Sequence record: KT184315.1
DNA: 64,000 nt
Source of the DNA: Enterobacteria phage KhF3
Direction: 5' to 3' (one strand)
In this document: positions 30,348 to 34,767 of the stretch, one piece after another
Position numbering within the stretch: the stretch's first letter is position 1
Layout: each line of letters opens with the position of its first letter
Program-made: the position numbers and the translations under genes
The notes under the pieces: model-generated
Seen by the model: only the letters and a program-made list of their open reading frames with translations
Told to the model about the DNA's origin: nothing
Database searches by the model: none

Positions 30348-30443
30348 ATGAAAGAGGTCTGGAGTTGTGCCGCTAACTCAACTCCGTGGAATTTGTTACG
30401 GTCTTCAGTTGACTCAAAGCGGTCTTTCACTTGACCTCTGAAT
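30348..30443 (-). ncRNA. Structured non-tRNA spacer (candidate small RNA or processing element)
   Basis: No T-loop signature; hairpin GGAGTTG-N11-CAACTCC at 30361-30385; long-range GAGGTC/GACCTC; contains ACGGTCTTC motif. Confidence 0.3.
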
Positions 30444-30446
30444 TGG

Positions 30447-30519
30447 TGCTCCCACAAGGACTCGAACCCTGATAAGTTGCTTACAAGGCAACCGTAATAA
30501 CCAATTATACGATAGGAGC
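30447..30519 (-). tRNA. tRNA-Thr (anticodon TGT)
   Basis: Perfect anticodon stem GTTGC/GCAAC, loop CTTGTAA, A73. Confidence 0.7.
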
Positions 30520-30529
30520 ATTAATTTGG

Positions 30530-30601
30530 AGCATCCAGAGGGAATCGAACCCTCAACCTCAGTTTGGAAGACTGTAATTTTCCCGTTTAAACTATGGATG
30601 C
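30530..30601 (-). tRNA. tRNA-Gly (anticodon TCC)
   Basis: Perfect acceptor and T-stem, loop CTTCCAA, U73. Confidence 0.7.
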
Positions 30602-30610
30602 ACTAATTGG

Positions 30611-30683
30611 TGGAGTCACCGAGAATTGAACTCGGTTCCCAAGTTTGCAAAACTCGAATTTTAACCATATAAACTATGACCCC
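30611..30683 (-). tRNA. tRNA-Ala (anticodon TGC)
   Basis: G3:U70 wobble pair in acceptor stem (Ala identity element), A73, anticodon loop TTTGCAA. Confidence 0.75.
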
Positions 30684-30692
30684 ATTGTTTGG

Positions 30693-30765
30693 TACAGGTG
30701 GAGGGAATTGAACCCATCGTCTTACTGATTAAGAGTCAGCCGCATAACCATTTTGCTACACCTGC
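30693..30765 (-). tRNA. tRNA-Lys (anticodon CTT)
   Basis: T-loop AATTGAA with weak 3-bp T-stem, anticodon loop CTCTTAA, A73. Confidence 0.6.
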
Positions 30766-30775
30766 ATTAATTTGG

Positions 30776-30849
30776 TACACCTAGAGAGATTCGAACTCAC
30801 ACTGAGCAGATTCTAAGTCTGCTGCCTCTACCAGTTGGGCTATAGGTGC
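30776..30849 (-). tRNA. tRNA with anticodon TAG (Leu codons CUA/CUG) but class-I length
   Basis: Perfect anticodon stem GCAGA/TCTGC, loop CTTAGAA, A73, 5-nt variable region. Confidence 0.55.
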
Positions 30850-31104
30850 ATTAAATCTTTTTAGAGAACTTCTAAGAACCTAAGCAACAAGGCTCCACAA
30901 CAAGCTGTAATAACCTTAGAAGCCCTCTAAAAAGACCTAAATAGGTCTTTGCATAGTCTTGTTTAATCCGGTGACTAGAACCTTTGGAGAGCTTGATATT
31001 ATCTCTTCTCCGTGACACCTACTAGGTGCTTTGACAGTGTACGACAATACACGAGGGATAAACCGACAATGCGAACAAGCATGGACGGAGTAAATCTTAT
31101 TAGG

Positions 31105-31192
31105 CGGTAAGTAAAGGAGTCGAACCCTCACCGTATCTCTACAGTGGCAACTGTTTTCAAGACAGTTTGGCTACCATTAGCCGCTACCTACC
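31105..31192 (-). tRNA. tRNA-Ser (anticodon TGA), class II
   Basis: Perfect anticodon stem ACTGT/ACAGT, loop CTTGAAA, 20-nt variable arm, G73. Confidence 0.7.
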
Positions 31193-31208
31193 CCTAATAA
31201 GACTTTGG

Positions 31209-31288
31209 CATGGGACGGAGGAGTTGAACCCCTTTGAAACGGTTTTGGAGGCCGTTGCTCATGCCTTAGAGTCTTAACATCGTCCCAT
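31209..31288 (-). tRNA. tRNA-Trp (anticodon CCA) with enlarged D-loop
   Basis: Perfect 7-bp acceptor, G73, anticodon loop CTCCAAA; about 7 extra nt in D region. Confidence 0.6.
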
Positions 31289-31433
31289 ATTATAATTCGA
31301 AGCTTACCCTGTTATCTCAACACTGTCAAGCTTCTTCTCAGATTATTTACATGTTCTGGAAAACATGAGATACAGACCACCTCCCTACAGGAAGACCCGC
31401 TAAGGCCGTCTAAGTAATCTGCTAACTATTTGG

Positions 31434-31507
31434 TACACCCTACAGGATTCGAACCTGTAACTAACGATTTAGAAGACCGTTGCTCTATCCAATTGAACTA
31501 AGGGTGC
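31434..31507 (-). tRNA. tRNA-Arg (anticodon TCT)
   Basis: Perfect T-arm ACAGG-ATTCGAA-CCTGT, anticodon loop CTTCTAA. Confidence 0.7.
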
Positions 31508-31756
31508 ATTATCTTTAAAGACTCTCTTAGAAAGCCCTTAAAGATGCCCACCTTATTAATCATACCGTGGGCGAGTACGCCAAATTCTTTGATGAGGGAT
31601 TGGAAGACCTCACTGGTGTTTAGCCTATCAAGCTACTGCCAGAAAAACATTGTCGTTTGCATTTATTTTAAATTTGCAAAATAGACGCTACGCAACGAAA
31701 ACTAAGGTTACTATAAAGTAGTCACATCTCAATGTCAACAACTTTATTGAAATTGG

Positions 31757-31907: not shown

Positions 31908-31988
31908 AGAATAAGTACCCTAGTTAGAGAAACTGTTGAGTGGGTGTTTCCAGCCGCGCAGGTGTTTCTCAGTTAAGGGTGAATTTGG

Positions 31989-32061: not shown

Positions 32062-32065
32062 ATTA

Positions 32066-32209
32066 AATTATCTTTGTAGATAAGCTACCCAGACTTGCTT
32101 AAGGTCTGTAGCGATGTGCCTTTTTGGGTTTAAATCTAGAATTTACCCTTTCACCCTTTGTGGTCGCATACTCACAGGTAAGCTTAATAACTTATCTACA
32201 AAGATAATT
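32066..32209. repeat. 19-bp perfect inverted repeat (AATTATCTTTGTAGATAAG) with arms about 106 nt apart
   Basis: Left arm 32066-32084, right arm 32191-32209 (reverse complement identical). Confidence 0.7.
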
Positions 32210-32234
32210 ACCAGACCGTTGTTTATCATCTTAA

Positions 32235-32307
32235 GTGCTACCATTACACCAACTCGACATCTGCCGAGTGAAGGAATCGAACCTTCGCCTTTTCTTTACC
32301 GGAGAAA
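32235..32307 (-). ncRNA. tRNA-like element with all tRNA arms present in circularly permuted order (anticodon GGT)
   Basis: Minus-strand order: anticodon arm TTTCT-CCGGTAA-AGAAA, 4-nt variable, T-arm GAAGG-TTCGATT-CCTTC, 3' acceptor ACTCGGC, linker AGAT, 5' acceptor GTCGAGT, U8, D-arm GTGT-AATGGTA-GCAC; bracketed by 8-bp helix (plus 32213-32220 with 32331-32338). Confidence 0.4.
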
Positions 32308-32524
32308 TAGATTGTTTAAGTTTTGCTGTAAACGGTCTTCTGTAAAATTGTTGAGCCAGACCAAGTTTTATAAATTTTTTCAAAATTAAATTGGCTTGAA
32401 AATATCATACGTACTTGCTGAATTTGGTCTTCTGCTCCTTTAAAGAATACTCGTAAGAACTCTTTAAGGGAGGGGCTAAAATAGCCCTCTCAAACATCAT
32501 TTTGAAATACTTATTATAATTTGG

Positions 32525-33351: not shown

Positions 33352-34767
33352 TTACCAGATGTAACGGTCAATCATTACTGCTTTGAGCATTACGCTGGTT
33401 GGGTCAAACTTCTCACCACCAAGCAGAGCTTTTAAAGTGGCTGGAGAGAACCCTGATACCATTGCTACACCGTTATCCTTAACAGACACTTCGCAAGTAC
33501 CACTACGGTTTGCTAAGTACCAGAATACCAGTTGTGGCATTTCGTATCCAGCTTTTTTGTACTTACTACGAATTGCTTCAAAGTTTGTACGACCATTTGC
33601 ACCGTCAACCTGATTGAACTCCATATCAGAGAAGATGATAAGCTTACTTGGCATATCTTTCTGAGTCAAGTTGTTTCTCTTACCTGTCTCAAGAATGCGG
33701 TCAAAAGCTGCTTGTAAGTTAGTTGAACCGTATTCAACATGACGCATTACCTGACGATGACGGTTTCGTAAATCACCACTCAGTTCAATGAAGTGAGGGT
33801 TTGTTGAATAAACCATCAACTCATTCTTAAAGCAACCTGTATTACGTTCTGCTACATACAATGCAAGTGAAACACCAATATCAAGAGCAGTAATTGAACC
33901 AAAATTCACCCAAGACATTGAACTTGAAACATCAGACATACATAGAATGTTTTCACCCTCTGCCATCCAGTTTGGTAGTGCTTTCCACTGCTCATTAGCA
34001 ACATCTGCATTACCATACTTAACAGATTTAATCACATCGTATGGGTAAACAGCACCAGCATTAATCTTAGTCTCACCCTTTGATAAGGACTCGATGTAAG
34101 CTTTGTAGCGCTCTCCATCTTTACGGTTAAACAGTTTTTGGTAACGTGCAGCAGCAAGTGAAGGAATCTTGCTGTAATCAATCTTACCAAACTCATTAGC
34201 AGAGATTTTTTGCTCAACTGTATCAGATAGTGCAGACAACAGTGTGCGGTACTCTTTCTCACTCAAGTTGGCAAACTTGCAGAAACGTTTTACAAACTGT
34301 TTGTGGCGTGGTTTTACTCGTGGCAACCACTTAGCTGCTAAACCTGCTGTTGCAGGGTCTAGTAATGCTGCTTCTAAATGTTTGAAGGCATCTGTCTCGA
34401 AACGAGTACCTACGAAGATTTTGAAGTCATCAAAGCGACCAAGTTCTGCAATCTTATCCATAATGCGAAGAACCTGTGTAGGTTCTAAAACTTTATCTTC
34501 AATCGCTTGAAGCAAAACAGTTCTGAAGGCTTTACGCTCACCCATACCTTCTCGTACATCTCGCATATGCAGTAAAATACGAACTGCAACATCAACATCC
34601 TCACGCAAAGCTTTGTAGAACAAGTCTGGTAAGATTTCTACATTGCTACGGCTTGAACCAGCAGCTTTGTAAAAATCTACAAGAGCAGACATTGATGAAG
34701 TATGGTTTACAGCACCATTTTCAGTTCGACCTGCATGAAGGTGCGCATGTTTAAATAACTCGCTCAT
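33352..34767 (-). CDS. vWA-domain protein (MIDAS motif DxSxS) with helical N-terminal domain
   Basis: CMSDVSSSMS (DxSxS) followed by beta-strand LIIFSDMEF; 471 aa. Confidence 0.5.
   Translation of the reverse strand: MSELFKHAHLHAGRTENGAVNHTSSMSALVDFYKAAGSSRSNVEILPDLFYKALREDVDVAVRILLHMRDVREGMGERKAFRTVLLQAIEDKVLEPTQVLRIMDKIAELGRFDDFKIFVGTRFETDAFKHLEAALLDPATAGLAAKWLPRVKPRHKQFVKRFCKFANLSEKEYRTLLSALSDTVEQKISANEFGKIDYSKIPSLAAARYQKLFNRKDGERYKAYIESLSKGETKINAGAVYPYDVIKSVKYGNADVANEQWKALPNWMAEGENILCMSDVSSSMSWVNFGSITALDIGVSLALYVAERNTGCFKNELMVYSTNPHFIELSGDLRNRHRQVMRHVEYGSTNLQAAFDRILETGKRNNLTQKDMPSKLIIFSDMEFNQVDGANGRTNFEAIRSKYKKAGYEMPQLVFWYLANRSGTCEVSVKDNGVAMVSGFSPATLKALLGGEKFDPTSVMLKAVMIDRYIW

Follow-up and report, generated by a model that had tools for sequence, protein, structure and literature searches.

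A putative tmRNA-derived RNA with a 5' domain antisense to host tmRNA in the tRNA array of a Felixounavirus

The tRNA array of Enterobacteria phage KhF3 (KT184315.1), analysed here as a window of 64,000 nucleotides, is interrupted by four long gaps, the fourth of which is predicted to encode an RNA that is, judged by its sequence, derived from tmRNA. This RNA retains the resume context, tag frame, stop hairpin and pseudoknots of tmRNA and carries a 5' domain antisense to host tmRNA, a composition absent from the options raised in a first-pass annotation of the same DNA. Our best reading is that it would pair with host tmRNA and either swap in its own tag template or just block tagging. Homologues are widespread in phages and unannotated, and the novelty of the element lies in the retention of only the template half of tmRNA together with complementarity to the tmRNA of the host.

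The window represents a Felixounavirus (99.9% to phage XTG1). The tRNA genes were located on the minus strand with ARAGORN, and the gaps are delimited by those calls:

30348-30443, minus strand: gap 1, 96 nt; structured RNA with the invariant core GUCAACUGAAGACCGUAACAAAUUCCA
30850-31102, minus strand: gap 2, 253 nt; variable 5' part, nearly invariant core at ~30955-31035, and a hairpin
31193-31430, minus strand: gap 3, 238 nt; 31291-31430 after subtraction of a tRNA-Trp-like gene (see below), with two stable hairpin domains and a weak promoter-like site at 31320-31292
31508-31753, minus strand: gap 4, 246 nt

These limits agree to 1-3 nt with the intervals by which the first-pass annotation had seen the array interrupted. 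It had also described them as holding stem-loops with no tRNA signature, and folding and Rfam searches show this to be right for all four. Compared with 200 dinucleotide shuffles, the transcribed (minus) strand folded with z-scores of -3.8, -3.3, -3.0 and -3.8 for gaps 1 to 4, with 0, 0, 1 and 0 shuffles, respectively, folding as well, and an Rfam scan, suggested earlier as a check, returned no family above threshold in the four intervals. Of two hairpins singled out previously, GGAGTTG/CAACTCC lies exactly where it had been placed (arms 30361-30367 and 30379-30385), and GAAGCTT/AAGCTTC is present but 2-3 nt away from its reported position (arms 31299-31305 and 31328-31334). The conservation in related genomes on which the earlier proposal had been made to depend was found, as the four gaps are kept in Felix-like relatives and match the flanking tRNAs in conservation, while their short ORFs are not conserved across homologues. 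Most modules end in a long hairpin abutting the next tRNA. On these grounds the long gaps do not appear to be junk spacers: each is, as far as sequence can tell, a conserved structured non-coding module. Two further suggestions found no counterpart, since no terminators were predicted in the four intervals and the evidence does not support degraded tRNA genes inside them; tRNA-like sequences adjoin them instead (31207-31290 and ~32230-32330). The proposed small RNAs fared better at the sequence level, through covariation and homologues in many phage families for gap 4 and through conservation and compensatory changes for gap 1.

Gap 4 comprises the following elements, listed in the direction of transcription:

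31710-31738, minus strand: sigma-70-type promoter with a -35 TTGACA (31738-31733), a 17-nt spacer and a -10 TATAGT (31715-31710)
31676-31704, minus strand: 5' domain UAGUUUUCGUUGCGUAGCGUCUAUUUUGC, complementary to host tmRNA nt 76-107
31661-31675, minus strand: A/U-rich single-stranded linker AAAUUUAAAAUAAAU, from the Rfam tmRNA and tmRNA_permuted alignments and E. coli ssrA
31628-31660, minus strand: tmRNA-like tag frame GCA AAC GAC AAU GUU UUU CUG GCA GUA GCU UGA
31613-31642, minus strand: hairpin containing the end of the tag frame and its stop codon, like tmRNA helix 5, from covariation
31580-31612, minus strand: pseudoknot a, stem UGAGG/CCUCA, whose loop CCAA pairs with a downstream UUGG
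31546-31579, minus strand: pseudoknot b, CGUACU/GGUAUG and GCCCAC/GUGGGC, from covariation analysis
31511-31545, minus strand: 16-bp terminal hairpin AUCUUUAAGGGCUUUC-UAA-GAGAGUCUUUAAAGAU, followed by AAU and tRNA-Arg(UCU)

The promoter supports, for gap 4, the earlier suggestion of internal promoters. It matches the consensus at 11 of 12 positions, is the best site within 7.5 kb and is 96-100% conserved in Felix-like relatives, and in siphovirus-type copies a separate promoter (TTGACA-17-TAGATT) stands at an equal distance. Transcription is predicted to start at about A31703, and gap 4 would encode an RNA of ~196 nt expressed from its own sigma-70 promoter. Release of this RNA probably occurs at the 5' end of tRNA-Arg, with the terminal hairpin as a likely processing site (for RNase III, or for RNase P at the tRNA). 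The same hairpin is homologous to a long 'spacer hairpin' downstream of the element in other phages, and its P7 copy covaries (GGGCGC/GCGUCC).

The relationship to tmRNA is most evident in the tag frame, which translates as ANDNVFLAVA followed by a stop, has no start codon and is preceded by an in-frame stop. The linker ends in AUAAAU immediately 5' of the resume-like codon, and its U at -5 and A at -4 are the same as in E. coli tmRNA. Gap 4 thus has the mRNA-like domain of a tmRNA, namely a resume codon with no start and a short tag with a hydrophobic end. Among homologues, exactly 10 codons plus a stop are kept in 31 of 32 distinct frames, and of 79 upstream contexts 70 lack ATG, GTG and TTG. 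Of the single-nucleotide codon differences in the tag frame 55% are synonymous, the other two frames giving 4% and 16%, and all four third bases are used in the last Ala codon. The 18 tag peptides are of the AND/ANE...AA or ...VA type, and every variant seen lacks Leu at -3, as found in the ClpX-recognised LAA end.

Rfam tmRNA and permuted-tmRNA models match the resume and tag region weakly and consistently in the window and in homologues. The tmRNA family RF00023 (clan CL00001) scores 11.9-15.7 bits in gap 4, below its 47-bit threshold, and the permuted two-piece family RF04321 scores 29.2 bits against 47, with the aligned T-arm belonging to tRNA-Ile. ARAGORN, which recovered E. coli ssrA, called no tmRNA in the window or in 17 homologous loci. 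T-loop motifs sought within 330 nt on either side showed none at a fixed distance from the element, and an Rfam search for a tRNA-like domain at E-values up to 10 gave nothing consistent. Since the gap 4 RNA lacks a tRNA-like domain, it could not be charged with alanine or enter the ribosome alone. A full-text literature search for the tag peptides and for phage tmRNA-like or anti-tmRNA RNAs found nothing relevant.

A tmRNA normally carries three pseudoknots 3' of its tag. In the gap 4 RNA the stop codon likewise lies in a helix 5-like hairpin, which is followed by two H-type pseudoknots. This hairpin consists of an outer stem CUGG/CCAG, which is 93% paired and in which all four pairs show changes on both sides, and an inner stem UAGC/GCUA. 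The helices of pseudoknot a are 99% paired, with CG/UA, GC/AU and AU/GC swaps. Over the whole structure 93.5% of cells are paired, compared with ~40% when the structure is slid along the alignment; both-sided changes occur at 18 of 27 pairs, and none of 500 shuffles reached the observed values. The pseudoknot b loop AUUAAUAA is invariant in the collected sequences, of which GATTAATAA formed part of the search pattern; this pattern was fixed as ATAAATGCAAACGA plus GATTAATAA, so that the invariance of both motifs partly reflects the pattern itself. A closing helix pairing an upstream CAGUGCUCUUUCC with a downstream GGUAAGAGCAUUG was considered and rejected, as cognate and non-cognate pairs score alike, the 5' strand is absent from promoter-bearing copies and, in P7, the covarying partner lies downstream, making it a hairpin 3' of the element instead.

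The 5' domain is complementary to the part of host tmRNA comprising the A-rich linker, the resume codon and tag codons 1-6 (nt 76-107). All pairing tests used E. coli ssrA as the host tmRNA. For the Felix-type domain, RNAduplex gave -27.3 kcal/mol, a value equalled by 2 of 300 shuffles, and among 5118 windows taken from this phage DNA its complementarity falls in the top 0.14%. The domain includes an exact 10-mer complement to ACGAAAACUA, and UAGUUUUCGU is a gap 4 stretch predicted to pair with ssrA. Taken alone, the Felix-type copy is only moderately significant in its complementarity to tmRNA. In most other families the antisense extends over ssrA nt 54-107, thereby also spanning pseudoknot 1 of the host tmRNA, at -42 to -50 kcal/mol (0 of 100 shuffles), and all 53 homologues compared prefer host tmRNA over their own tag region (-39.6 versus -19.2 kcal/mol). 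The complementarity is thus extended and beyond chance. Indels and variable columns sit where the duplex is predicted to be unpaired. The domain is nearly invariant and a search for internal covariation found none, which together point to a fixed external partner. Its derivation from a tmRNA helix-2 strand or pseudoknot 1 was rejected given this lack of internal covariation, antisense pairing being the better fit.

The gap 4 element has homologues in many phage families (at least six, with more than 800 records), including lambdoid HK620/HK633, P1/P7, N4-like phages, Ackermannviridae, siphoviruses and Felix-like phages, where they lie repeatedly in tRNA or late-leader regions. At least 147 of 5426 E. 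coli genomes carry the element. A scan of a genome collection found it in five species only, one being a false positive in a coding region, and copies were obtained from Rosenbergiella and Pantoea. The element would consequently bear on the annotation of therapeutic phages and of prophages, including those in the at least 147 complete E. coli genomes.

We propose that during infection the gap 4 RNA would anneal to host tmRNA and cover the host tag template, bringing the phage linker, resume codon and tag frame beside the host tRNA-like domain. Host and phage RNA would then form a 'two-piece' tmRNA, and a tag set by the phage, with no Leu at -3, would be added to rescued proteins, perhaps to the benefit of the phage. 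This reading, in which a tmRNA-derived RNA supplies its own template after annealing, is held tentatively and falls just short of an even chance. Homology to the coding part of tmRNA, the covarying structure, the coding-type constraint on the tag, the pairing potential with E. coli tmRNA, the promoter and the broad occurrence stand on sequence results; expression, annealing in vivo, template use and any gain for the phage are inferred. The broader proposal that many enterobacterial phages turn host tmRNA into a chimeric two-piece tmRNA via a docked antisense arm is doubtful at present. It would require the ribosome and SmpB to thread a template that is held in place through an intermolecular duplex of 30-45 bp. 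If true, the degradation tag on rescued proteins would be rewritten, and viruses would have a new route to manipulating both ribosome rescue and protein quality control. We know of no case of a tmRNA template supplied in trans; this would be the first, and also the first parasite to re-program ribosome rescue.

A plain antisense inhibitor or sponge, whose pairing with host tmRNA only blocks trans-translation or tagging, is a somewhat unlikely alternative that draws on the identical complementarity evidence. Its tmRNA-like 3' part would be untranslated and would act as a scaffold, stabilise the RNA, or be a decoy for tmRNA-binding proteins such as S1, RNase R or SmpB. That the RNA has no tRNA-like domain suits one that never enters the ribosome, and there is precedent for phage proteins acting on host tmRNA (PMC11662646). 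However, inhibition leaves unexplained why the frame has a constant 10 codons plus stop, why 55% of its differences are synonymous with all four third bases in the last Ala codon, and why the resume context retains -5U/-4A.

The gap 4 RNA could instead supply the coding piece for a genuine two-piece tmRNA, with an acceptor piece elsewhere in phage or host and an incidental complementarity to host tmRNA. Natural permuted two-piece tmRNAs exist, the phage contig L083 encodes one (92 bits) that shares the AUAAAUGCAAACGA motif, and the window holds both a weak permuted-tmRNA match (29 bits) and tRNA-like pieces in the array. That match, however, uses the T-arm of a genuine tRNA-Ile, the 5' end has no GGGG-type acceptor strand, and many copies, among them those of HK620/HK633 and the siphovirus types, lack a T-loop within 330 nt and occupy loci without tRNAs. 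The near-invariant 5' domain without internal covariation further argues for a fixed external partner, and we consider a separate acceptor piece improbable.

We assign a similarly low probability to the gaps being processing spacers (RNase III/RNase P hairpins), promoters and homing-endonuclease scars with no RNA function of their own, the tmRNA-like piece being a captured fragment in decay. Long hairpins ending in ...AAAGAU(A/U)AAU stand directly 5' of three tRNAs, HNH endonuclease genes are gained and lost in the gaps across relatives, and tRNA content differs between these relatives, all as a spacer origin would predict. Decay is nevertheless at odds with more than 800 phage records in at least six families, compensatory changes and a constrained tag frame, and gap 1 is conserved above its neighbouring tRNAs and recurs in another subfamily. 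Ordinary translation of small proteins is very improbable: short ORFs are annotated in several records (e.g. wV8 genes 49, 51 and 51A), but the 64-aa ORF of gap 2 is interrupted by stops or frameshifts in the majority of homologues, the ATG-frame peptide of gap 4 is 5 to 9 aa long and unconserved with 4% synonymous differences, the plus-strand ORF 31544-31684 overlaps covarying RNA helices, and conventional ORFs in gaps 2 and 4 were accordingly rejected.

The remaining gaps have features of their own. Gap 1 retains 95-98% identity even where the flanking tRNA-Val falls to 85%, and a homologue adjoins tRNA-Gly in the Vequintavirinae phage Av-05, in which AGAGGUC/GACCUCU is replaced by the compensatory AGAUGUC/GACAUCU. 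Gap 2 forms a 26-bp hairpin (30851-30940) immediately before tRNA-Leu(UAG), which is kept in homologues. In phage Michonne an HNH endonuclease gene is inserted at the gap 2 site, which on this comparison is a putative homing-endonuclease insertion hotspot. Gap 3 is 89-98% identical among homologues, its stems being preserved via G-U changes. Homologues of gaps 2 and 3 contain no conserved ORF and have conserved hairpins instead. Covariation in gaps 1-3 was sought within Felix-like phages, where divergence is too low (89-100% identity).

Two tRNA-like elements and a protein gene neighbour the gaps:

31207-31290, minus strand: tRNA-Trp-like gene missed by ARAGORN; tRNA-clan match of 23 bits, acceptor stem
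~32230-32330: Y-RNA-like permuted tRNA mimic, in the gap 32062-32521 and outside the four intervals

A cloverleaf check of the Trp-like gene, which scores 23 bits and is negative by ARAGORN, found the acceptor, anticodon and T arms, with an atypical D arm. It has an A1-U72 pair, G73 and an encoded CCA end, as well as the anticodon loop CUCCAAA (anticodon CCA) and the T-loop UUCAACU, and Trp is the sole amino acid for which ARAGORN called no tRNA in the array. The gene is 86-100% conserved in relatives and absent in wV8. The Y-RNA-like module, read directly from the sequence, contains T- and D-arms plus a loop-closed acceptor stem, and its region also contains the closing helix AGACCGUU/AACGGUCU. 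The acceptor hairpin covaries (ACUCGGC/GUCGAGU to CCUUC/GAAGG). The module adjoins a Ro60-like gene, as is characteristic of bacterial Y RNAs, which lie beside a gene for a Ro60/TROVE plus vWA protein. The AlphaFold model of this protein (pLDDT 87.6) returned Ro60/Rsr or TROVE proteins as the top ten Foldseek matches, over the full length and with TM-scores up to 0.64. A sequence search of this DUF2828 protein against the PDB gave nothing significant, the match being found by fold search only, and a full-text literature search on DUF2828 found nothing relevant. Together with this gene and its Y-RNA-like neighbour, the tRNA array could be a hub of RNA-based host manipulation.

The Y-RNA-like module resembles YrlA with Ro60/Rsr as a tRNA mimic encoded beside a Ro60-like gene, with the same T- and D-arms and loop-closed acceptor. 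It differs in that the phage protein belongs to a DUF2828/DUF7788 branch and matches Ro60 by fold only (13-17% identity).

Stable non-tRNA RNAs are long known from the T4 tRNA cluster as 'species 1 and 2' (bands C and D), with a function long unknown. Like these, the gap 4 RNA is a non-tRNA RNA within a phage tRNA array, and would probably be co-processed with the tRNAs. We know of no tmRNA resemblance in species 1 and 2, and the likeness drawn here is one of position. If our proposal is correct, it would suggest a function for some of the long-puzzling non-tRNA RNAs of phage tRNA clusters.

The prophage anti-sRNAs AgvB and AsxR, reportedly described by Tree et al. in 2014 from the Q-to-lysis region of lambdoid phages, are phage RNAs that base-pair with a host regulatory RNA, as the gap 4 RNA is predicted to, and lambdoid copies of the gap 4 element lie in the same pR' late-leader region. 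Unlike them, the element has tmRNA rather than an Hfq-dependent sRNA as its predicted target, is far longer and includes a template-like module.

The closest known system is tmRNA (SsrA) itself, including its permuted two-piece forms and the tmRNAs that some phages encode. All bacteria have tmRNA, and descriptions have always shown either a single self-contained molecule or two pieces from one gene. The gap 4 RNA shares with it a GCA resume codon whose A/U-rich upstream stretch places U at -5 and A at -4, a 10-codon tag with an AND start and small hydrophobic end residues, a stop codon inside a hairpin, and H-type pseudoknots downstream. It differs in size (~196 nt versus ~360 nt), in Rfam scores of 12-29 bits against a 47-bit threshold, in tags with no Leu at -3, and in lacking the acceptor stem, T-arm, CCA end and pseudoknot 1, whereas its 5' domain is antisense to the tmRNA of the host.

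The region shares 99.9% identity with Enterobacteria phage XTG1 and 93-98% with many Felixounavirus genomes. ARAGORN places 26 minus-strand tRNA genes between 27939 and 33186, in an array flanked by genes for a large terminase, several DUF proteins and a DUF2828/DUF7788 protein. The ARAGORN positions bear out the first-pass annotation's claim that four long intervals (gaps 1-4) genuinely interrupt the tRNAs. Features of the array are as follows.

30348-30443, minus strand: gap 1, between tRNAs
30850-31102, minus strand: gap 2, between tRNAs
31207-31290, minus strand: tRNA-Trp-like gene not called by ARAGORN (A1-U72, G73, CCA anticodon, encoded CCA end, odd D arm)
31291-31430, minus strand: gap 3, beginning after the Trp-like gene
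31508-31753, minus strand: gap 4, between tRNAs
30851-30940, 31511-31545 and 32065-32215, minus strand: long near-perfect hairpins ending ...AAAGAU(A/U)AAU, immediately 5' of tRNA-Leu(UAG), tRNA-Arg(UCU) and tRNA-Lys(UUU)
31908-31985, minus strand: 78-nt hairpin element between tRNA-Met and tRNA-Lys(UUU), folding z -4.3
32221-32345, minus strand: permuted tRNA mimic, within the gap 32062-32521
33352-34767, minus strand: DUF2828/DUF7788 gene adjoining the array

On the transcribed strand, all four gaps fold better than dinucleotide shuffles (z -3.8, -3.3, -3.0 and -3.8 for gaps 1 to 4; in no gap did more than 1 of 200 shuffles reach the same stability), in agreement with the stem-loops reported there; both named pairs of hairpin arms are present, the first exactly as placed and the second 2-3 nt off. 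The intervals were also said to hold no tRNA signature, and an Rfam 15 scan returned no above-threshold match in any of them. The gaps are 89-100% identical among Felix-like relatives, about the same as the tRNAs. The overall observation is confirmed, and its interpretation as small RNAs, internal promoters or terminators, or degraded tRNA genes proves correct in part.

Gap 4 holds a tmRNA-derived RNA that lacks a tRNA-like domain and is predicted to target the host tmRNA. It is composed of the following parts.

31738-31710, minus strand: promoter TTGACA-17-TATAGT (11 of 12 consensus positions; the best site within 7.5 kb)
near A31703, minus strand: predicted transcription start
31704-31676, minus strand: 5' domain, then an A/U-rich linker ending AUAAAU
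31660-31628, minus strand: tag frame GCA AAC GAC AAU GUU UUU CUG GCA GUA GCU UGA
3' of the tag frame, minus strand: stop-codon-containing hairpin, then two H-type pseudoknots
31545-31511, minus strand: perfect 16-bp hairpin, then AAU and tRNA-Arg(UCU)

The tag frame would yield ANDNVFLAVA (the E. coli tmRNA tag is ANDENYALAA), has no start codon and is preceded by an in-frame stop. Ten codons and then a stop (TAA, TAG or TGA) make up 31 of 32 distinct 33-nt frames, and the 18 peptides all begin AND or ANE and end AA or VA, with all four third bases in use at the last Ala codon. Synonymous changes account for 55% of single-nucleotide codon differences in the tag frame; the corresponding shares for the two other frames are 4% and 16%. 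In 70 of 79 upstream contexts, the stretch back to the nearest in-frame stop, usually seven codons away, lacks ATG, GTG and TTG. This pattern of substitutions and missing start codons marks a frame that is translated yet has no conventional means of starting, as in tmRNA. The Rfam tmRNA and permuted-tmRNA models align precisely to the resume/tag stretch, with scores (12-29 bits) far below the threshold of 47. Across 53 aligned sequences, pairing in the stop-codon hairpin and both pseudoknots is 93.5% (about 40% with partner columns slid), and two-sided changes occur at 18 of the 27 pairs (149 cells); none of 500 shuffles attains the observed covariation values.

ARAGORN called a tmRNA neither in the window nor in homologous loci, while detecting E. 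coli ssrA, the tmRNA gene. Near the gap-4 elements, T-loop motifs are either missing or found at inconsistent distances; the gap-4 RNA falls outside tmRNA membership. A true member is exemplified by one hit of the pattern scan, a 146-kb IMG/VR viral contig (L083), which encodes a genuine permuted two-piece tmRNA at 1494-1841 on the minus strand (RF04321, 92 bits; tag ANDNFAPSDYALAA; no ARAGORN call) and may be a source of the shared AUAAAUGCAAACGA motif.

The 5' domain of most families, UAGUUUUCGUAAGCGACUUUGCGGGUUUUUAGAAACUGACCACA, is nearly invariant and is predicted to pair with E. coli ssrA nt 54-107, comprising the 3' part of pseudoknot 1, the A-rich linker, the resume codon and tag codons 1-6 (-42.7 kcal/mol; shuffles -26.8 +/- 2.8). 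Seven variants from different families pair at this site with predicted energies of -42 to -50 kcal/mol, equalled by 0 of 100 shuffles. The Felix-type domain in the window is predicted to pair with ssrA nt 76-107 through UAGUUUUCGU/ACGAAAACUA (10/10) and GCGUCUAUUUUGC/GCAAAA(AA)UAGUCGC (12/13); its duplex energy of -27.3 kcal/mol is equalled by 2 of 300 shuffles and ranks within the best 0.14% of 5118 windows of equal length taken from the same phage DNA. Host tmRNA is a better partner for the 5' domain than the element's own tag region in 53 of 53 sequences (mean -39.6 vs -19.2 kcal/mol). Variable columns and indels coincide with bases that the duplex prediction leaves unpaired, and the first antisense base coincides with the predicted transcription start.

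The gap-4 RNA most likely works through the tmRNA system. We propose that it would dock on host tmRNA and mask the host template, and that it may further present its own. The main rival is a plain inhibitor of host tmRNA; own-template presentation would account for both the coding constraint and the retention of the -5U/-4A context. ClpX recognises the LAA end of the tag, including position -3, and since Leu at -3 is absent from all phage tags seen, the fate of the phage tag may differ from that of the host tag. We found no published description of such a tmRNA-targeting phage RNA in the literature; cleavage of host tmRNA by a phage protein has been described (PMC11662646).

A sensitive BLAST search found similarity of ~31545-31669 to unrelated phages. 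With the HK633 copy as query, 837 phage records matched, none annotating the element, and these span lambdoid and P22-like phages (HK620, HK633), Ackermannviridae, Klebsiella/Salmonella siphoviruses, and N4-like, P1/P7 and Felix-like phages. A pattern scan of IMG/VR found at least 120 contigs, and the element is also present, unannotated, in chromosomal prophages of at least 147 of 5426 complete E. coli genomes. In HK620 and HK633 it is placed between pR'/qut and the late terminator; in P7, between C1-controlled Op(ban) operator sites and tRNA-Asn/Thr; in N4-like PhAPEC7, upstream of a tRNA; and in Serratia phage IME250, near tRNAs. Within the IME250 tRNA region, ~1 kb downstream of the element, L004 1301-1514 (minus strand) matches the enterobacterial sRNA STnc100 above the Rfam threshold (48.7 bits vs 47). 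In lambdoid late leaders (pR'/qut to lysis genes; L003, L006, L008, L010, L013, L015, L024), the element is one unit of an RNA-module array parted by long hairpins CAACAGGUAAGAGCAUUG...CAGUGCUCUUUCC with varying inserts, some holding tRNA-like minihelices (hairpin plus T-arm GGGUUCGAAUCCC) without an ARAGORN tRNA call.

In other phages, a homologous long hairpin always follows the gap-4 element, may carry large inserts and covaries in P7. The three pre-tRNA hairpins of the window look like a repeated processing signal, plausibly RNase III or RNase P processing punctuation.

Gap 1 (96 nt) is a conserved structured RNA, with 95-98% identity even where the adjoining tRNA-Val has 85%. A 79% identical copy beside tRNA-Gly in Vequintavirinae phage Av-05 retains a 27-nt invariant core and shows compensatory changes (AGAGGUC/GACCUCU to AGAUGUC/GACAUCU; GGAGUUG/CAACUCC to GGGGUUG/CAACCCU). 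Gap 2 has an annotated 64-aa ORF that is broken in most homologues, a nearly invariant ~80-nt core, and a 26-bp hairpin adjoining tRNA-Leu(UAG). Gap 3 keeps two hairpin domains, in part via G-U changes, and a weak promoter-like site lies ahead of the Trp-like gene, which would complete a tRNA set for all 20 amino acids. Of the Felix-like genomes compared, only this phage and XTG1 have the complete 31908-31985 hairpin, and Michonne matches part of it; 79-100% similar sequences occur in 120-150-kb phages of Escherichia (Av-05), Klebsiella, Acinetobacter and Salmonella, the Av-05 copy lying directly before tRNA-Cys with compensatory changes.

HNH homing-endonuclease genes occupy differing array sites across relatives (L001 and L129; region of window 30850-31290), in gap 2 directly before tRNA-Leu(UAG) in Michonne and in the interval of the absent Trp-like gene in wV8, and single tRNA genes are replaced by ~75%-identical alleles; these insertions and swaps mark the array as a recombination hotspot. 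The record GU169904.1, 'Staphylococcus phage SA1' (147 kb; matches H28, H33 and H187), includes the Felix O1-like tRNA array at 93-96% identity, which suggests a chimeric or contaminated assembly.

The DUF2828/DUF7788 product has Ro60, Rsr and Thermus phage phiLo Ro60 as top PDB matches, and models as a full-length Ro60 (TROVE + vWA) homologue. The tRNA mimic runs from a T-arm GAAGGUUCGAUUCCUUC through a loop-closed acceptor hairpin (ACUCGGC-AGAU-GUCGAGU), which covaries in divergent relatives (CCUUC/GAAGG), to a D-arm GUGUAAUGGUAGCAC; closed as a whole by the helix AGACCGUU/AACGGUCU, it shares the architecture of the bacterial Y RNA YrlA.
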